Of a DNA stretch of 64,000 nt, positions 55,329 to 64,000 are shown piece by piece. Every line of letters starts with the position of its first letter. The first letter of the stretch is position 1. The notes under the pieces were generated by a model, which saw only the letters and a list, made by a program, of their open reading frames with translations, was not told the DNA's origin and did no database searches. Where the stretch lies: positions 1 through 64,000 of the forward strand of contig JARGFH010000003.1 of NCBI GenBank assembly GCA_029210695.1, in the 5' to 3' direction. Origin of the DNA: Acidimicrobiia bacterium. GTDB taxonomy: Bacteria > Actinomycetota > Acidimicrobiia > Spongiisociales > JAHEDJ01. A program made the translations under genes and the position numbers.

Positions 55329-57365
55329 ATGAAACCGAGCACCAGATATATCGATCGTGAGCTTTCCTGGCTCGACTTCAACTCCAGAGTCCTTCATATT
55401 GCCGAGGATCCGGACACGCCTCTCCTCGAGCGGATCAAGTTCCTTGCCATCTTCACAACGAACCTCGACGAATTCTTCGAGATCCGCGTGGCCGGGATCC
55501 TCGAGCAGGTTGCGGCCGGCGTTCGACGGCCCGCCCAGGGTGGCATGTATCCGATATCGCAGCTCCGGGCGATTCGTGCGCGGGTCGAGGAGATGTATGT
55601 GCGTGTCGACACCGTGTTGCGCGAGGAGATCATCCCCGGACTCGCAAAGGAGGGTGTCCATTTCCGTTCGTGGGAGGAGCTGAGCGACGCCGACAAAGCG
55701 TTCTTGACCGTCCAGTTCCACACCAGGGTTTTCCCGGTGGTAACTCCCTTGTCTGTCGACCCTGGTCATCCGTTTCCGTACCTCTCCAACATGTCGCTCA
55801 ACCTGGCGGTCACGGTGCGGGATCCGTCGAGCGGGAAGTCCCGGTTCGCCAGGGTCAAGGTTCCGCCGATCCTGCCGCGCTTCCTGGTTCTCCCGGGCGG
55901 TGAACAGATCATCGCCCTCGAGCAAGTCATTGCAGCCCATCTCGACTTCCTATTCCCCGGCATGGAGATCGTCTCGCACGTCGCCTTCCGCGTGACCCGC
56001 AACGCCGACATCACCATCGAGGAGGAAGAGGCCGACGATCTGCTCGAGTTCATCGAGAGCGAACTCAGTCGGCGGCGACTCGGCCGGGTCGTTCGCCTCG
56101 AGGTCGAGCCCGGCATCACAGATGATTCGCTCGGGTTGCTGGTCCGCGAACTCAACATCGCCCCGGAGCAGGTATACGTTACGGAGGGGCCGCTCGATAT
56201 GACCGGTTTCTGGGGTCTCTACGATCTGGAGCGTCCCGACCTGAAATGGGATCGCTACGTCTGGGTCACTCCTCGCCAGCTGGCCTCGATTCCCGGCGAA
56301 CGGATGAACATCTTCGATCGGATTCGCGAGGGTGACATCTTCGTGCAGCATCCATACGACTCGTTTGCCGCCTCCGTCGAGGAGTTGGTGAACCAGGCGG
56401 CCAACGATCCGAAGGTGCTGGCCATCAAGCAGACCCTCTATCGAACCTCTGCCGAATCCCCATCGATGCGCTCGCTCATCGCCGCGGCCGAAGCAGGCAA
56501 ACAGGTGGTGGCACTGGTCGAACTCAAGGCGAGGTTCGACGAGCGAGCCAACATCGAATGGGCCCGGCGCCTCGAGGAGTCGAGCGTCCACGTCGTATAT
56601 GGTCTCGTAGGGCTCAAAACGCATACCAAGACAACCCTGGTCGTGCGTGACGACGGTGACGAGATTCGGCGTTACTCACATGTGGGAACCGGGAACTACC
56701 ACGACAAGACCGCCAGGATCTACGAGGACATCGGGCTCCTGACTGCCGATCCCGAGATCGGAGCCGACCTCTCCGACCTCTTCAACTACTTGACGGGATA
56801 CAGCAAACAGGTCGACTATCGCAAACTCCTGGTCTCGCCGATCACGCTTCGAGACCGAATGATCAGGCTCATCCGCCGGGAGGCCAAACGCGAGGATGGC
56901 CACATCGTCATGAAGATGAACTCACTCGTCGACGGTGGCATGATTCGTGAGCTCTACAAGGCCTCGCAGAAAGGCACGCCCGTTGACCTGATCGTGCGAG
57001 GAATCTGCTGCTTGCGACCAGGAGTAGAAGGCAGATCCGAAAATATCACTGTCCGGTCGCTGGTCGGCAAGTATCTCGAGCACTCGCGGATTTACCGGTT
57101 TGGCACCCATGAAAGAGGGTATGACTACCTCATAGGTTCCGCGGATCTCATGCCGCGTAACCTCGACCGCCGGGTTGAGGTGGTTGTGCCGATCGGTGAC
57201 CCAACCCACCACGACCGCCTCGACGAGATCTTCGAGATCCTCTTCGCCGATGATCAGCTCGCATGGGAACTTCACCCGGACGGCAAATGGAGCAAAGTCG
57301 CGGCCGGGGGCGGAGTGAATGCGCATCTTCGCCTCCAGGAGTTGGCAATCGAACGTACGAGGTGA
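55329..57365 (+). CDS. ppk1: Polyphosphate kinase 1
   Basis: RELSWLDFN, NLDEFF, ELKARFDE, KTHTK, LEHSR, SADLMPRNL. Confidence 0.96.
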   Translation: MKPSTRYIDRELSWLDFNSRVLHIAEDPDTPLLERIKFLAIFTTNLDEFFEIRVAGILEQVAAGVRRPAQGGMYPISQLRAIRARVEEMYVRVDTVLREEIIPGLAKEGVHFRSWEELSDADKAFLTVQFHTRVFPVVTPLSVDPGHPFPYLSNMSLNLAVTVRDPSSGKSRFARVKVPPILPRFLVLPGGEQIIALEQVIAAHLDFLFPGMEIVSHVAFRVTRNADITIEEEEADDLLEFIESELSRRRLGRVVRLEVEPGITDDSLGLLVRELNIAPEQVYVTEGPLDMTGFWGLYDLERPDLKWDRYVWVTPRQLASIPGERMNIFDRIREGDIFVQHPYDSFAASVEELVNQAANDPKVLAIKQTLYRTSAESPSMRSLIAAAEAGKQVVALVELKARFDERANIEWARRLEESSVHVVYGLVGLKTHTKTTLVVRDDGDEIRRYSHVGTGNYHDKTARIYEDIGLLTADPEIGADLSDLFNYLTGYSKQVDYRKLLVSPITLRDRMIRLIRREAKREDGHIVMKMNSLVDGGMIRELYKASQKGTPVDLIVRGICCLRPGVEGRSENITVRSLVGKYLEHSRIYRFGTHERGYDYLIGSADLMPRNLDRRVEVVVPIGDPTHHDRLDEIFEILFADDQLAWELHPDGKWSKVAAGGGVNAHLRLQELAIERTR

Positions 57366-58840
57366 ACGTGCTCGAGCGTGAGCTGAAGCTCGCCGTCGGA
57401 GATGCCTTTGATTCTTCTGCGCTCAGCGGGCGGCTCGGCCCTTGGCAGCTCGAGCTCCTCGAGTCGGTGGCTCTTGATGCCGAGTATTACGACACCACCG
57501 ATTTCCGGTTGCTCCGCAGCGGAATCTCATTGCGGTTCAGGGAGGGTTGGATGGTCAAGCTGGCGCAGCCGTCCGATCGACCCGAGCTTTTGCAGCGGAT
57601 CGAGATACCGTTCGACGGTCCTGAAGGGAGCATTCCGGCTGGTGTGCTCGACCTGACTCGTTCCGCCGCTCGCTCGGCCCCGGTGCTGCCCGTCGCGCGA
57701 TTGTCGACGGCCCGTCAGACATTTGCCCTTCGTGACGACGCCGGAGTCGATCTGGCTGAAATCGTCTTCGACGAGGTGGAATCAGCCGCGAAGGGCCGGG
57801 CGCATGTGGAGTTTCGGGAACTCGAGATCGAGCTGGCGGAAGGGGCGCCGGTTTCCGTGCTCGGTCCGGTGGTTGCGCGACTCAGGCAGTTGGGCGCAGG
57901 TGGAGTGATCGCAATTCCCAAGCTTGCTCGTGCGGTGGGAATGTCGGCGGTGCCGGAGGCCGTGGTACCGGTCTGGGAACCCGGAGCGGCGCCGGCCGTA
58001 ACCGAGATCGTTCATGGTGCCATCGCCAGATCGGTGCGCCGTTTCTTGGACCACTGCCCGGCCGTCATTCTCGACGAGGATCCGGAGGGGGTGCACCAGG
58101 CCAGGGTGGCCATCAGGCGTCTCCGCTCCGACCTTCGCACCTTTCGCCGTTTCCTCAACCGGACCTGGGCCGATCAGCTCAGGACTGATCTCCGCGCCCT
58201 CACCGACCTCCTGGGGAGCGTGCGCGATCTCGATGTGCTAAAGCTCCGGTTGGCGCTTCTGCTGGAGGACGTTCCTGACCCCGAACGAGAGGCTGCCGAG
58301 GCGATCATCGCCACGCTGAGCGCCGAGCGAGCGGACGCTCACCAACGAGTTGTCGAGGCGCTTCGGGAGGATTGGTTTCTCTCTCTGCTCAATCGTTTGG
58401 TGGCGGCGGCCAACGCACCTCACGTCACCAAACTGGCAGGGAAACCGGTCGATCCCACTCTCTTGAAGTTGGCGCGCAAACCCTGGCGAGTCCTGGTAGC
58501 CGCAGTCGGTCAACTCCCCGAGCTGCCGTCACCGGATGAACTGCATAGCGTCCGGATCCTGGCGAAGCGGACCCGGTATGCCGCGGAGGCCTTGATTCCG
58601 GTGGTCGGGGCGAATGCGGAGCTCTTTGCCGTTCGCCTCTCCGAACTGCAGGATGTGCTCGGCGAACATCAGGACGCGGTGGTCGCCGCCGCCTGGCTCC
58701 GGCGTCGCCATCCATCCCAGGCCCTGGCGGCGGGGGAGCTCATCGGTTTCGAAGTAGCGCGGGCCAACCGGGCTGCCGAGGGATGGCGGGACGTCTGGGA
58801 GTCGATCAACCGCCACCCGATGACTTCCTGGATGGGGTGA
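57362..58840 (+). CDS. CYTH + CHAD domain protein
   Basis: ERELK, YYDT, ELEIEL, HQARVAIRRLRS, KRTRY, LQDVLG..QD. Confidence 0.9.
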   Translation: MNVLERELKLAVGDAFDSSALSGRLGPWQLELLESVALDAEYYDTTDFRLLRSGISLRFREGWMVKLAQPSDRPELLQRIEIPFDGPEGSIPAGVLDLTRSAARSAPVLPVARLSTARQTFALRDDAGVDLAEIVFDEVESAAKGRAHVEFRELEIELAEGAPVSVLGPVVARLRQLGAGGVIAIPKLARAVGMSAVPEAVVPVWEPGAAPAVTEIVHGAIARSVRRFLDHCPAVILDEDPEGVHQARVAIRRLRSDLRTFRRFLNRTWADQLRTDLRALTDLLGSVRDLDVLKLRLALLLEDVPDPEREAAEAIIATLSAERADAHQRVVEALREDWFLSLLNRLVAAANAPHVTKLAGKPVDPTLLKLARKPWRVLVAAVGQLPELPSPDELHSVRILAKRTRYAAEALIPVVGANAELFAVRLSELQDVLGEHQDAVVAAAWLRRRHPSQALAAGELIGFEVARANRAAEGWRDVWESINRHPMTSWMG

Positions 58841-59929: not shown

Positions 59930-60070
59930 ATGGAAGAGACCACATCCACTGAGGAACAGCTCCATCCGAAAGGAACGTTGCTTGTCCTGGCGATATTCGT
60001 TCTCGTTCTGATCTTGCTGTGGGCGACCGTGTATTTGATTCTGCTCTCGAGAGGGATGACGACCGTATGA
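59930..60070 (+). CDS. ba3-type oxidase subunit IIa
   Basis: 46 aa single TM, PKGTL...W..VY..LL.RG. Confidence 0.85.
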   Translation: MEETTSTEEQLHPKGTLLVLAIFVLVLILLWATVYLILLSRGMTTV

Positions 60071-60579
60071 CCGAGGTTCCCGGCGACGGCTCAGTCCAGA
60101 CGTCGCTCCACATCGATCCGTATGAGCGGAACTGGATGCGCCTCACGGTGGTGCTCTTGGTGGTGTTCGCCACAGCCGTCACCATCGCCGGGTTTGCCCT
60201 CGGTTTTCAGGTGCCCAGTCCCGAAGAGCGCGTCGACCCGAACACGGTTGCGATTGGAGATGGGCCTTTCGCAGAACCCGGCTTGCGCGAATACCCGGAC
60301 GGAAGCTACGACCTCTACATCGTCTCGCAAATGTTCTCCTTCACTCCCAACGAGGTGACGATTCCTGCCGGTTCGGAGGTCACCTTCTACGTCACTTCGG
60401 TCGACGTCCAGCACGGTTTCAAGCTCCAGAACACCAACGTGAACATGCAGATCGTTCCGGGGCAAGTTTCGAAACTGACGATGACCTTCGACGAACCCGG
60501 CACGTACGACTTCATCTGTACCGAGTACTGCGGCAGTGCCCACGCGCAGATGTACGGCACGCTGACCGTCGAGAAGTGA
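60067..60579 (+). CDS. cbaB: ba3-type cytochrome c oxidase subunit II (CuA)
   Basis: YERNW, single TM, DVQHGF, CTEYCGSAHAQM. Confidence 0.93.
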   Translation: MTEVPGDGSVQTSLHIDPYERNWMRLTVVLLVVFATAVTIAGFALGFQVPSPEERVDPNTVAIGDGPFAEPGLREYPDGSYDLYIVSQMFSFTPNEVTIPAGSEVTFYVTSVDVQHGFKLQNTNVNMQIVPGQVSKLTMTFDEPGTYDFICTEYCGSAHAQMYGTLTVEK

Positions 60580-60595: not shown

Positions 60596-62257
60596 ATGCT
60601 GACCACGCCGACCTACGTACTCACAAAATCCGAGAAGAGCTTCATCTCGCAACACCTGCTGTTCGCGTTCATCGCGCTTGCGATCGGGTCTTTATTCGGC
60701 CCCCTCCAGGCGTTCGAATTCAGCGGGGTCGACTTCTATCCGCTCCTCGAGCCGGTGATCCAGTCCTACTACCAGGGACTGACACTCCACGGCGTGCTCA
60801 ACGCACTGATATTCACGACCTTCTTCATCACCGGTTTTCTCACGCTGACCACGATCTACGGACTCAAGCGTCCGCTCAAATACCCGCTCCTCAACCGGAT
60901 CGGTTTCTGGACGATGGTCGTGGGTCTCTTGATGGCGGCGGTGCCGATCCTGCTCAACGAAGCCAGTGTTCTCTACACCTTCTATCCGCCCCTCCAAGCC
61001 AACGTGTTCTTCTACTTCGGCTTGACCCTGGTGGTGGTCGGCAGCTGGCTTGAAGGCTACGGATTCATCTTCACCTGGCGCGAGTGGCGCAAAGAGAATC
61101 CGGGAGTTCGGACGCCGCTAATGACCTTTGGCGGCCTAATCACCATGGTGATGTGGCAACTTGCCACGCTCGGCATTGCAGTTGAAATCTTGACAATGCT
61201 CATTCCCTGGGCGTTGGGGTGGATCGACGGAGCCGATCCACAGCTGGCCAGAACTTACTTCTGGTTCACGGGTCATCCACTGGTCTACTTCTGGCTCCTG
61301 CCTGCCTACGTGTCGTGGTACGCCATGCTTCCGAAGCAGGCCGGCGGGAAGCTCTTCAGTGATTCTCTGGCGAGGATCGCCTTCTGGTTGTTCCTGCTTC
61401 TGTCGGTGCCTCTCGGGTTCCACCATCAGTTCGTCGACCCGGGCGTTCCGGCGGGGTGGAAGTACATCCATGCGATCCTCACCTACGCGGTGTTCTTCCC
61501 TTCCATGATCACTGCGTTCACAGTCATCGCTTCGCTCGAACGTGCAGGACGAAATCGAGGCGGCAAGGGGTGGCTCGGCTGGATACCGAAACTCCCGTGG
61601 AATGATCCGTCGGTCAGCGCCCAGTTGCTCGCCGGCATTCTGTTCTTCTTCGGAGGCATCGGGGGGATTACCAACGCCTCCTACAACATCAACCTCGTAA
61701 TCCACAACACGGCCTGGGTCTCCGGGCACTTCCATCTCACCGTGGCCTCGGCCTCCGCATTGTCGTTCATGGGGATCTCCTACTGGCTCGTGCCGTATCT
61801 CCGCGGCAGACGGCTGTGGAGTCGCAAATGGGCCCAGATCCAAACGTGGCTCTGGTTCGTTGGGATGCTGATCTTTTCGAATGCGATGCATGTCCTCGGT
61901 CTGCTCGGTGCACCGCGACGGACACCGCTGGGTGAGGCGCCGTATGTGCCGGACGAATGGAGCGGCCATCTGCTGCGCACCAGCATCGGCGGCGCCATCC
62001 TGTTCGTTTCCGCCTACATGTTCATCTTCAATATCGCCAGGACCTGGTGGTCGAAGAAACTGCTCGCCGGCCCCGGTGAAGAAGTAGAGATCCCGGCGGC
62101 GGAATCGGTGCATCCAGCTCAGGAGACGCCGGCGAAGCTCGACTGGTGGACGCCCTGGCTGATCGGCACGGTGGCGCTGATCCTGGTTGCCTACGGTCCA
62201 CAGTTGATCGAGCAGATCGGCAACATCGATCTGTCGTCTCCGGGGTTCAGGCCCTAA
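60596..62257 (+). CDS. cbaA: ba3-type (B-family) cytochrome c oxidase subunit I
   Basis: YYQGLTLHGVLNA, WFTGHPLVYFWLLPAY, GFHHQF, GHFH, PRR. Confidence 0.95.
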   Translation: MLTTPTYVLTKSEKSFISQHLLFAFIALAIGSLFGPLQAFEFSGVDFYPLLEPVIQSYYQGLTLHGVLNALIFTTFFITGFLTLTTIYGLKRPLKYPLLNRIGFWTMVVGLLMAAVPILLNEASVLYTFYPPLQANVFFYFGLTLVVVGSWLEGYGFIFTWREWRKENPGVRTPLMTFGGLITMVMWQLATLGIAVEILTMLIPWALGWIDGADPQLARTYFWFTGHPLVYFWLLPAYVSWYAMLPKQAGGKLFSDSLARIAFWLFLLLSVPLGFHHQFVDPGVPAGWKYIHAILTYAVFFPSMITAFTVIASLERAGRNRGGKGWLGWIPKLPWNDPSVSAQLLAGILFFFGGIGGITNASYNINLVIHNTAWVSGHFHLTVASASALSFMGISYWLVPYLRGRRLWSRKWAQIQTWLWFVGMLIFSNAMHVLGLLGAPRRTPLGEAPYVPDEWSGHLLRTSIGGAILFVSAYMFIFNIARTWWSKKLLAGPGEEVEIPAAESVHPAQETPAKLDWWTPWLIGTVALILVAYGPQLIEQIGNIDLSSPGFRP

Positions 62258-62293
62258 CCGCACCAGGAGTTCCGGCGCGACGCGTCCGTTCGG

Positions 62294-62381
62294 TCCCCCC
62301 TTGGGGGGAAGGGACCCGCTGCGCAAGCAGCGGGTAGGGGGGCACCGGACTCCTAGGTTCTGGGTTTTAGGTTCTGGGTTC
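62294..62381. repeat. Double-hairpin intergenic element followed by four heptamers
   Basis: TCCCCCC-TT-GGGGGGA, ACCCGCTGC-GCAA-GCAGCGGGT, then T(A/G)GGTT(C/T) x4. Confidence 0.6.
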
Positions 62382-62478
62382 TACCTCGTCACGCTCGACG
62401 CGGTCGGCTCACCGCCTATGGCTGATTGCCAATTCCGGCGATCAGCGGCATACGGCTCGCCATTACTCTCCCCGACCT

Positions 62479-64000
62479 ATGAACACCGAGCGTCTCAACG
62501 AACTCCAGCCTGCGGTCGACTGGGACGCCCGCCAGGGCGGAGTGGTCAAGCGGTGGCTCAATCGGTTCGAGTCGTGGTCTCTGGCTGTTGAGCGTCTCGT
62601 TGGTAGATTCGTTCGTGACCAGAACCTGAATCCGCTTTATCACACCGGCACAATCACGGTCTTCTTGCTGGTGCTGCTCCTCCTGACGGGCATCTATTTG
62701 ACGCTGTTCTATCAGTTCGGATTCGACGCCACCTACGTGGCCGTGGCGGGCATTGAGAGCAACCCGGTCGGCCGGATCATCCGTGCCGTTCACCGTTATG
62801 CCTCCGCAGCCACGCTGATAACGGCCGTTATCCACGCATGGAGAACGTTCTTCATGGATCGATTCCGGGGAGCCCGCTGGACTGCGTGGGTCACCGGCGT
62901 GGCCTCTGTGTCGCTTGTTTGGCTGGCGGGCGTCACAGGCTATTGGATGATTTGGGACGTCACCGCCGGCCCATTGAATCAGTCGTTGATCGACCTGATC
63001 GATTGGGTTCCCGGCGCGGATGCGTTCATCGTCAACACACTCACCCCTGGATTTTCTGGATCTGGCTGGGTGTTTCTCGTGTTGGTCATCACTGCGCATG
63101 TGCTGGTGAGCGCGATCATCGGCGTGATGCTCTGGTATCACCTCCGGCGGCTGAACCGGGCTCACTGGTTGCCACCTGCCCATTGGATGTGGGTATCCGG
63201 CGCTGTATTGCTGTTAGCTGCCATTGCGATGCCGGTCGGGATGCTTCCTGCGATGGACGTCACCGAGCGGGTTGGGACGCTCGACCTCGATCTGTGGTTT
63301 CTCACCTACCTTCCTGCTGCGTTGCGCAGCCCCCTGTTGGTATGGGTTGCCGTTGCCACGGTGACGATCCTTGGAGCTGCGATCCCCTGGTTGCTGCGGC
63401 GCAGGCTGCCGGCCCCGGTGGTGGTGGACGCGCTGCGGTGCACCGGGTGCACGCTCTGTTTCGTCGACTGCCCGTACACGGCGATCACGATGGGCCGGCA
63501 GGAAACCGGTGATCTGCTGGCCATCGTCGATCCACGAAAGTGCGTTTCGTGTGGAATCTGTATCGGGAGTTGTCCACCGCTTGCCATCTCTTTTGACGGC
63601 AAGCCACCCGAGACCGGTTGGCCTTTGGTTCACCCGGAATTCCGGGAGGGAGCGGAAGTCTCCTATGTATGTGAGCGGCATCTGCAGCAGGGGGCCCGCG
63701 ACGTGTCGGGAATCGTGATTCCGGTTACGTGCGTCGGGATGATCCATCCTGATGAGGTAGAGGCAGTGCTGTTTGCGGGAGCCAGTCGGGTGCGCCTGAT
63801 TGGATGTCCGCCGGACGACTGCTCCAACCGGGAGGGAAATGAGTGGGCCCAGGCCCGATTGACCGGGCAGCGGCGCCCGAAAGCCCATGAGGGACTCGAT
63901 CTCGATCGGGTCGAATTCGACTGGAGAGCGCCGGGGAATTCCCCGACGGTCAATGCTCCGGTGAGGTTCCGGGAGGTGGTTCCACCGCCACATTGGAAGC
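62479..64000 (+). CDS. Cytochrome b + 2x[4Fe-4S] ferredoxin + MvhD/FlpD-like fusion (runs off window end; not in ORF track)
   Basis: Manual translation: NPLYHTG, RAVHRYAS..IHAWR, WVTG, GYW, AH..WYH; CTGCTLCFVDCP and CVSCGICIGSCP; YVC, TCVG, GCPPDDCSNREGN. Confidence 0.9.
   Translation, partial: MNTERLNELQPAVDWDARQGGVVKRWLNRFESWSLAVERLVGRFVRDQNLNPLYHTGTITVFLLVLLLLTGIYLTLFYQFGFDATYVAVAGIESNPVGRIIRAVHRYASAATLITAVIHAWRTFFMDRFRGARWTAWVTGVASVSLVWLAGVTGYWMIWDVTAGPLNQSLIDLIDWVPGADAFIVNTLTPGFSGSGWVFLVLVITAHVLVSAIIGVMLWYHLRRLNRAHWLPPAHWMWVSGAVLLLAAIAMPVGMLPAMDVTERVGTLDLDLWFLTYLPAALRSPLLVWVAVATVTILGAAIPWLLRRRLPAPVVVDALRCTGCTLCFVDCPYTAITMGRQETGDLLAIVDPRKCVSCGICIGSCPPLAISFDGKPPETGWPLVHPEFREGAEVSYVCERHLQQGARDVSGIVIPVTCVGMIHPDEVEAVLFAGASRVRLIGCPPDDCSNREGNEWAQARLTGQRRPKAHEGLDLDRVEFDWRAPGNSPTVNAPVRFREVVPPPHWK

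Follow-up and report, generated by a model that had tools for sequence, protein, structure and literature searches.

A cytochrome b fused to 4Fe-4S and MvhD domains, with no Rieske gene in the cluster and a function stated to be unknown, was described for two bacterial proteins, from Magnetospirillum and Turneriella, under the name 'PDWF-FeS clade' (Kao and Hunte, 2014; PMC4122944, accessible text), and this clade probably falls within the 'subfamily H' of a later classification (Dibrova et al., 2017; PMC5600118, going by its accessible parts). The same combination occurs at the end of a 64,000-nucleotide stretch of an Acidimicrobiia bacterium (assembly GCA_029210695.1, contig JARGFH010000003.1, positions 1 to 64,000, hereafter the window), where the gene under study, hereafter the fusion gene, follows the genes of a ba3-type oxidase. 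As far as the published description is accessible, the fusion and the 'PDWF-FeS clade' have in common the cytochrome b-4Fe-4S-MvhD arrangement, the Qo-motif region and the Rieske-less cluster; they are likened by description alone, and the motif reads LDLW in the former vs. PDWF in Magnetospirillum and Turneriella (PMC4122944). In the accessible portions of both papers (PMC4122944, PMC5600118), neither a seventh helix, a beta-sandwich, a fused cytochrome c nor a linkage to haem-copper oxidases is mentioned. An earlier note on this DNA had taken the architecture to lack an assigned function, which agrees with the function stated as unknown in print, but the architecture itself had already been noted in 2014. 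Beyond these two papers, literature searches returned none on the fusion architecture, and the fusion is not described in the accessible parts of papers on Chloroflexota respiration.

The fusion gene encodes a six-cofactor membrane-spanning protein with an oxidase-donor-type c haem outside, almost always encoded together with a CuA-containing haem-copper enzyme. From its sequence and gene neighbourhood, it probably supplies electrons to the co-encoded ba3-type oxidase. Regarding the way in which it would do so, the reading put forward here, at a probability of roughly 0.4, is that of an input module dedicated to the oxidase, which would oxidise quinol without a Rieske protein and have a cytoplasmic iron-sulphur (Fe-S) branch.

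In Sulfolobus, the gene of SoxC presumably sits within the SoxABCD oxidase operon, and this operon and the present locus are alike in being haem-copper oxidase operons with a cytochrome b of their own. SoxC is named as the cytochrome b of the SoxABCD quinol oxidase in the accessible text of Kao and Hunte (2014; PMC4122944). The likeness is at the superfamily level only, SoxC being archaeal and devoid of Fe-S, MvhD and cytochrome c domains; the NCBIfam matches to SoxC (E 4e-11), SoxB (E 3e-12) and SoxA (E 5e-10) were weak and all far below the cut-offs. In anammox bacteria, Rieske/cytochrome b complexes that include an NAD(P) oxidoreductase subunit on the cytoplasmic side were proposed to perform quinol bifurcation to NAD(P)+ (Kartal et al., as cited in Hauser et al., 2025; PMC12954380, accessible part). 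These complexes and the fusion are alike in that the negative (N) side of the cytochrome b is joined to a cytoplasmic Fe-S chain instead of, or besides, the Qi site. They differ, from the same accessible description, in that the anammox complexes comprise Rieske, haem cn, multihaem cytochromes c and a FAD/NAD(P) module as separate subunits, none of which the fusion has, whereas the Fe-S chain of the fusion ends in an MvhD [2Fe-2S] cluster and the protein is oxidase-linked.

The cytoplasmic domains themselves recall the heterodisulfide reductase (Hdr) systems. The ferredoxin domain matches the C-terminal ferredoxin domain of HdrA (5odc_A), the MvhD-like domain matches the MvhD chain 9sw2_D (E 1.2e-8), and the succession of 2x[4Fe-4S] and a four-Cys FlpD fold is that of the HdrA2 C-terminus (model positions 572-754 of 777). 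Unlike in Mvh-Hdr, however, the MvhD domain has no linked Mvh-type partner and, in an aerobe, forms part of a respiratory protein, with transmembrane helices on either side of it. As for the fused cytochrome c, it is like the caa3 subunit II domain (1w2l_A), i.e. a class-I cytochrome and donor to CuA, but it is fused to a cytochrome b protein here and to oxidase subunit II in caa3.

Architecture and conserved ligands of the fusion protein

The frame of at least 507 codons announced in the earlier note is open from 62479 (+) to the end of the window, over 507 codons, and continues for 236 codons to a stop at contig position 64710, giving a product of 743 amino acids (aa). It is one membrane protein of seven helices and six cofactors, in the order six-helix cytochrome b, 2x[4Fe-4S], MvhD-like [2Fe-2S], seventh helix, beta-sandwich and class-I cytochrome c (Table 1). 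Four Pfam families matched above their curated cut-offs, namely Cytochrome_B (residues 48-225, E 8e-12), Fer4_7 (4Fe-4S dicluster, residues 320-366), FlpD (residues 413-490, E 7.5e-11, 42.5 bits vs. a cut-off of 22.3) and Cytochrom_C (residues 646-742). No NCBIfam model matched above its cut-off, the best being ExtP (64.7 bits, cut-off 290), with HdrA2 (56 bits, cut-off 1100) and cytochrome b6 (54.8 bits, cut-off 325) also below theirs; these matches were partial, those to ExtP, cytochrome b6 and SoxC falling on the N-terminus, and residues 314-488 matching the ferredoxin and MvhD part at the C-terminal end of HdrA2.

The AlphaFold2 (AF2) model of the fusion (mean predicted local distance difference test, pLDDT, 83.5; predicted template modelling score, pTM, 0.79) comprises six cytochrome-b-type helices, two cytoplasmic alpha/beta domains, a long helix at 503-527, a beta-sandwich and a helical C-terminal domain. 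With Foldseek, 285-327 columns could be aligned to full-length cytochrome b chains from bcc/bc1 complexes (E 5e-6 to 5e-4), so that the likeness to cytochrome b spans helices E/F and the ef loop. Basic residues are concentrated behind helices D and F and ahead of helix 7, and the remaining loops are rich in acidic ones. With the N-terminus of the cytochrome b inside, this charge pattern obeys the positive-inside rule and places the Fe-S domains in the cytoplasm and the beta-sandwich and cytochrome c outside, a sidedness that matches the compartments where each cofactor type can be inserted.

Conservation was assessed in two alignments. The close one holds the query and 41 homologues chosen from 120 listed (n=42, 42-88% identity to the query), the listed 120 (coverage 97-100%, 736-831 aa) coming from 651 proteins at E <= 0.001 among 8000 candidates. 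The distant one holds the query and 84 of 150 listed matches (n=85, identity down to 23%), the 66 shorter ones left out being fragments and forms of ~440-580 aa ending after the MvhD domain or without the N-terminus. The profile of the 42 sequences had cytochrome b6 chains as best match (E 3e-21), and in the residue-level profile alignment the b6 stretch GVTGYxxxWD is kept in helix C, with the four histidines H105/H119 (helix B) and H207/H221 (helix D) falling on the haem ligands of b6. These histidines are invariant at both depths (42/42 and 85/85). All eight cysteines of the two CxxCxxCxxxCP motifs (C321-C331 and C355-C365), the MvhD cysteines C398, C418, C443 and C448, and C662, C665, H666 and M719 of the cytochrome c are invariant in the 42. 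Among the distant sequences, the Fe-S cysteines are kept in 84-85/85, except C448 (72/85), and the C-terminal CxxCH occurs in just 16/85. The protein carries, as judged from these alignments, conserved ligands for two b haems, two [4Fe-4S], one [2Fe-2S] and one c haem, and the bc-type histidines, the paired cysteine motifs and the four-Cys MvhD/FlpD-like domain singled out in the earlier note are all borne out.

Residues 497-743 were also modelled separately (pLDDT 80.1). The best structural match of the fused cytochrome c (641-743) was 1w2l_A (Z 11.9, root-mean-square deviation 2.6 over 92 residues, 37% identity). For the beta-sandwich, the matches were generic Ig-like only (Z <= 8.5; Atlas feature scores <= 0.84) and neither these nor the feature scores indicated a cofactor-binding family over residues 532-640; position 547 is His in 44/85 of the distant relatives.

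Linkage to haem-copper oxidases and family distribution

The oxidase genes directly precede the fusion gene. Subunit I matched the Thermus thermophilus ba3 chains in phmmer (E 5e-149 to 1e-142, residues 13-552) and conserves the active-site motifs GHPxVY (GHPlVY), HH (GFHHQF) and GHFH (GHFHL), which hold the CuB His, the cross-link Tyr and the haem His; this sequence match and the kept active-site residues justify the label of ba3/B-family oxygen reductase, as had been stated from the start. No Rieske, c1 or Hdr gene was found among the 14 downstream and eight upstream open reading frames (ORFs) scanned, where no search was aimed at Hdr (CCG domain), and the fusion contig gave no Rieske match, the related loci not having been scanned for Rieske; the absence of a Rieske gene from the window thus extends to the contig, and that of a c1 gene to the downstream genes scanned. 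Library scans of the ORFs likewise gave no Mvh/Hdr genes in the fusion cluster (Hdr not being searched specifically), and no conserved cytoplasmic redox partner gene was found among the fusion neighbours in the window cluster and related loci.

In a species-genome collection, 568 pattern matches were obtained, of which 519 encode a fusion relative, and the best 80 of these 519 loci were analysed, all from metagenome-assembled genomes labelled Acidimicrobiia/Actinomycetota or Chloroflexota, mostly Anaerolineales. Neighbours were counted by tblastn of the 80 loci with the window's own proteins, the upstream count taking the 69 loci with at least 2.5 kb upstream (11 shorter ones were not counted). 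A COX1 homologue ends less than 500 bp upstream of the fusion gene, on the same strand, in 66/69 loci and lies about 1-6 kb upstream in the remaining three, with a COX2 gene within 3.2 kb of the fusion in 66/69; the tblastn distances put the subunit I-fusion gap at about 50-390 bp. Sco1 occurs within 6 kb of the fusion in 45 of the 46 loci having 6 kb on both sides. A lipocalin-like lipoprotein gene is found at most 1.8 kb downstream in 57/67 loci (31 on the same strand, 26 on the opposite one), farther away in four and not found in six. As the 80 loci are the closest relatives, the linkage count is valid for this clade only. The survey of haem-copper oxidase linkage called for in the earlier note hence came out in favour of such a linkage.

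Within the window's class, the fusion gene was found in 9/151 sampled genomes (window genome included), all from one order, i.e. its distribution is patchy. Against 1.84 billion cluster representatives (50% identity), a profile of the fusion family gave 619 matches at E <= 1e-30. A search for shorter forms, as natural split versions of the protein, gave 47 matches, mostly partial or on short contigs, none of them convincing.

Besides, a clade of paralogues of about 690-750 aa lacks the cytochrome c. In 4/4 loci of this clade (L104, L105, L108, L109; L103 and L110 are outside this count), a COX1 gene of divergent sequence (155-226 bits) is present at no more than 5 kb. In 3/4 of them, COX1 and the paralogue are separated by a Cu-type P1B ATPase gene, with DsbD_2 as a further gene on the COX1 side of the ATPase in L108 and L109, both from Anaerolineales. 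The haem-copper enzyme beside this clade may be NO-reductase-like. In a recent survey of nitric oxide reductases (PNAS, 2024; PMC11214002), the main text and readable supplements mention no ferredoxin or iron-sulphur partner.

Candidate electron paths

On the outer face of the fusion, LDLWF at residues 270-274 is the candidate counterpart of PEWY, in a flanking pattern x-D-x-aromatic-aromatic-L-F/x-Y-L-P vs. P-E-W-Y-F-L-F-A-Y. Position 271 is Asp in 83/85 and Asn in 2/85 of the distant relatives; because D271 is kept to this extent, a quinol site on the fusion is likely, and there is moderate evidence that a quinol-oxidation pocket is retained on this face. Conservation is highest on the N-side surface, where N51, P52, G57, R102, R106, R133 and R224 are each kept in at least 87% of the 85. 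There, His55 is the counterpart, in the alignment, of Cys35 in the haem-cn site of b6. All 42 sequences of the close clade have His at this position, and the 85 distant ones have H in 39, Q in 17, Y in 14 and R in 7 (77/85 hydrogen-bonding). As H occurs in 39/85 only, His55 was dropped as a candidate ligand of a third haem and kept as a polar residue of a putative N-side pocket. No bc1-type Qi ligand could be aligned on the fusion.

In the mechanism proposed here, menaquinol would be oxidised without a Rieske protein at an outer-face Qo-like site, with D271 replacing the PEWY glutamate. The first electron would pass to the fusion's own c haem, possibly also to the adjoining lipoprotein cytochrome c, and from there to CuA and O2, so that oxidase and fusion would together constitute a self-contained quinol oxidase, by analogy with SoxC in the Sulfolobus SoxABCD complex. 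The second electron would cross the membrane via haems bL and bH to the 2x[4Fe-4S]/[2Fe-2S] chain, which would stand in for the Qi site and exchange electrons with a cytoplasmic partner encoded outside the cluster. Along this cytoplasmic branch, electrons could run either out of the membrane (bifurcation) or into it (ferredoxin-assisted Q cycle). The specifically bifurcating version, a Rieske-less quinol oxidase in which O2 reduction draws the first menaquinol electron and the second makes ferredoxin-level reductant via Fe-S/MvhD, is unlikely when taken on its own.

The quinol-oxidising module is supported by the invariant ligands, the retention of D271, the oxidase linkage, the caa3-like c domain and the lack of a Rieske gene on the contig, as well as by the anammox complexes as a proposed precedent (PMC12954380, accessible part), a cluster of the same content being encoded in the genome. 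The genes downstream are not a conventional Rieske/cytochrome b or Hdr set and comprise instead a lipoprotein cytochrome c, the lipocalin-like lipoprotein, two Sco1 and PCuAC. Since they do not complete such a complex and the oxidase linkage is very strong, the Rieske-less wire to cytochrome c and oxidase proposed in the earlier note stands as the leading reading; the linkage, the protein's own cytochrome c and the missing Rieske speak for it, its electron path and direction being inferred only.

Several observations weigh against quinol oxidation by the fusion. The potentials of ferredoxin-type clusters usually lie far below those of b haems, a difference that favours outward flow, and, along the path considered, how the first electron would reach the c haem without a Rieske head is not evident. 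In the AF2 model, helices G/H of cytochrome b are missing, and the usual Qi residues are absent, with position 55 being H in 39/85 only. Besides, the Qo motif is otherwise degenerate, its Pro, Trp and Tyr positions varying (Trp in 25/85), as compared with 96% conservation of this Trp among cytochromes b in the accessible text of Kao and Hunte (2014; PMC4122944). D271 was put in register with PEWY by eye, from the FLF/YLP pattern on its flank, and not by a computed alignment, and the hidden Markov model (HMM) alignment of the fusion family to the split cytochromes b of its own genome stopped before the ef loop. The LDLWF given in the earlier note in the place of PEWY is present in the sequence and is a candidate counterpart, with a kept Asp and variable other positions. 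Regarding the module as the sole quinol:cytochrome c link, the genome encodes three conventional Rieske/cytochrome b6 clusters elsewhere (seven Rieske matches, all off the fusion contig), and 5/5 other fusion-carrying genomes have a conventional cytochrome b6 with adjoining Rieske. As these conventional clusters co-occur, the fusion is not needed as the only such link and is not the sole complex III of the organism; the comparison with the other carriers brought no discrimination. The organism encodes an A-family oxidase as well; the non-canonical respiratory module of the earlier note stands as an oxidase-linked fusion, but beside, and not in place of, this conventional equipment.

The downhill thermodynamics expected for ferredoxin-type clusters, which is established knowledge, would be used directly by a quinone-independent transmembrane wire from a low-potential cytoplasmic donor to the oxidase, with electrons running from [2Fe-2S] to 2x[4Fe-4S], bH, bL, the c haem and CuA. 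The donor would be ferredoxin reduced by 2-oxoacid:ferredoxin oxidoreductases, or else a flavoprotein or hydrogenase that docks on the MvhD-like domain, and the oxidase would burn surplus low-potential reductant or scavenge O2, energy being conserved by the oxidase only. Such a plain cytoplasm-to-oxidase wire, doubtful by itself, is nearly as likely as the quinol-oxidising module. It agrees with the six conserved cofactors forming a single series from the N side to the positive (P) side in one polypeptide, with the native role of MvhD as an inter-protein electron connector and with the likeness of the ferredoxin-MvhD pair to the HdrA2 C-terminus. The genome has three POR_N-type 2-oxoacid:ferredoxin oxidoreductase genes as ferredoxin-reducing enzymes and a single NiFe hydrogenase match, on another contig than the fusion, the FlpD domain of the fusion being its only FlpD match; many fusion carriers are, moreover, Anaerolineae. 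The wire nevertheless leaves unexplained the retention of helices E/F, of the ef loop and of the near-invariant D271, no donor gene is conserved in the fusion neighbourhood, and the outward electron flow would dissipate membrane potential.

Qo features and low Fe-S potential would both be put to use in a ferredoxin-assisted Q cycle, where the Fe-S chain would bring the second electron to the putative N-side quinone-reduction pocket near bH, with a yield of two protons outward per electron from the cytoplasmic donor to the oxidase. This matches the seven conserved residues of the N-side surface and the hydrogen-bonding nature of the position aligned with the haem-cn cysteine of b6, but the lack of an alignable bc1-type Qi ligand counts against it, as does the fact that the ferredoxin route into haem cn of b6f is a proposal, itself unproven; it is quite unlikely. 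Less probable still is an assembly, redox-sensing or protective factor, which would for instance keep CuA or haem reduced during maturation with Sco1/PCuAC. Copper chaperones do accompany the fusion, as illustrated by the Sco1 count, and the clade that lacks the cytochrome c has the Cu-type P1B ATPase and DsbD_2 as companions, but a chaperone would hardly need a membrane-spanning six-cofactor chain, the C-terminal domain is similar to cytochromes c of the oxidase-donor type and all redox ligands are strictly conserved.

Many uncultured Chloroflexota and Actinomycetota have B-family oxidases as their high-affinity oxygen reductases and, to our knowledge, the electron supply of these oxidases in those groups is assumed rather than known. 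If the fusion feeds the oxidase, it would represent an unrecognised respiratory complex from a large family (619 clusters; 519 stretches) and the scoring of complex III as present or absent in metabolic reconstructions from metagenomes would change. If quinol is oxidised as proposed, the fusion would provide a natural single-polypeptide test case of the ability of a Qo-type site to function when there is no Rieske protein, and of the coupling of a low-potential Q-cycle branch to cytoplasmic redox chemistry, which is proposed and not proven for the anammox complexes. In the bifurcating direction, it would be an oxygen-driven low-potential electron source, independent of the proton motive force, in aerobes or microaerobes; in reverse, it would be a ferredoxin-assisted proton-translocating Q cycle. 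Either direction, if true, would add a third type of complex III to the Rieske/cytochrome b and alternative complex III (ACIII) types, private to B-family oxidases and their NO-reductase-like relatives.

Flanking genes and related clusters

Table 1. Features of the fusion gene, its oxidase cluster and related clusters. Positions without a prefix refer to the window.
Feature	Position	Strand	Remarks
Cytochrome b part, residues 1-310	62479..63408	+	Helices A-F; H105, H119, H207, H221; D271 codon 63289-63291
2x[4Fe-4S] ferredoxin domain, residues 314-375	63418..63603	+	Pfam Fer4_7; 8 invariant Cys; cytoplasmic by topology
MvhD/FlpD-like domain, residues 390-490	63646..63948	+	Pfam FlpD; C398, C418, C443, C448
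Seventh transmembrane helix, residues 503-527	starts 63985..64000	+	Continues past window
Beta-sandwich, residues 532-640 (about 529-637 in the AF2 model)	beyond window	+	Predicted models
Fused cytochrome c, residues 644-743	beyond window, to contig 64710	+	C662, C665, H666, M719
Membrane-anchored monohaem cytochrome c, 273 aa	58862..59683	+	Pfam Cytochrom_C E 7e-12; first gene of cluster
Small ORF, 69 codons, one transmembrane helix	59861..60070	+	Probable start ATG 59930, 46 aa
Oxidase subunit II, CuA motif CTEYCGSAHAQM	60019..60579	+	Pfam COX2 E 3.6e-11
B-family (ba3-type) oxidase subunit I	60596..62257	+	phmmer vs. Thermus thermophilus ba3
Gap, 221 bp, subunit I to fusion gene	62258..62478	+	Sequence
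Small lipocalin-like lipoprotein	contig 65102-65569 (L002:5102-5569)	-	Lipobox LGAC, weak LIC10280-family match, lipocalin-like Atlas model
GltD-like NAD(P)-type flavoprotein with C-terminal 2x[4Fe-4S], cytochrome b6, subunit IV, Rieske, cytochrome c	C94:46766-50776 (L107:6766-10776)	+	
310-aa 2x[4Fe-4S] protein, cytochrome b6, 565-aa petD-like protein, Rieske, dihaem cytochrome c	C109 (L106:1890-9475)		
Subunit II-like (CuA motif kept), divergent COX1, Cu-type P1B ATPase, fusion paralogue	L104:8180-15498, L108:2052-9548, L109:5926-13443		

Among the three Rieske/cytochrome b6 clusters of the genome, two start with a cytoplasmic Fe-S protein (Table 1). The cluster with the GltD-like flavoprotein (C94) has the same gene content as the anammox Rieske/cytochrome b complexes, as far as these are described in the accessible part of the paper (PMC12954380), but is found here in an Acidimicrobiia-like aerobe. 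The other one (C109) adjoins a divergent COX1 (116 bits, minus strand), and its cytochrome b6 has the CLGG (haem cn) motif, with an LYHLHPVKV motif upstream. Judging from such gene contents, the connection of cytoplasmic Fe-S clusters to the N side of a cytochrome b recurs in these organisms. In another carrier genome (G155, L111:6183-16330), a cluster of GltD-Fer, cytochrome b6, Rieske and cytochrome c genes is divergent from, and back-to-back with, a cluster of COX2, COX1, a 311-aa protein and the fusion.

Upstream in the oxidase cluster, the anchored cytochrome c begins with a signal/anchor, carries a CFACH motif and has hydrophobic helices towards its C-terminus. The stop of the small ORF that follows overlaps the probable ATG start of subunit II, and we take its product to resemble the ba3 subunit IIa (CbaD). 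The gap that separates subunit I from the fusion gene holds a perfect GC-rich hairpin of 8 bp, closed by a GCAA loop (at about 62311-62340), with no T tract behind it, and a weak terminator-like site with a 5-bp stem at 62352-62364. A terminator in this gap was rejected as a candidate, with only this weak site to account for it and a scan not above shuffles (11 terminator-like sites in the 8.2 kb scanned vs. 6.2 +/- 2.9, not significant). No RNA run was found among the sequencing runs, and three sediment DNA runs share 0.05-0.07 of the sampled words.

Downstream, the fusion gene is followed by the gene of a 120-aa lipoprotein cytochrome c, paralogous to the fused cytochrome c domain, and by that of the lipocalin-like lipoprotein, which has no conserved Cys, His or Met besides the lipobox. 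Complex prediction of the latter with the fusion scored 0.00 ('no answer') and no conclusion was drawn from it. Two Sco1 genes, PCuAC, a low-molecular-weight phosphatase and the Pst/PhoU/PhoBR genes come next. Phosphate genes flank the oxidase cluster on both sides, with ppk1 and a CYTH-CHAD protein upstream (55329-58840) and pstS-like, pstCAB, phoU and a PhoB/PhoR-like two-component pair downstream (L002:8294-15657).

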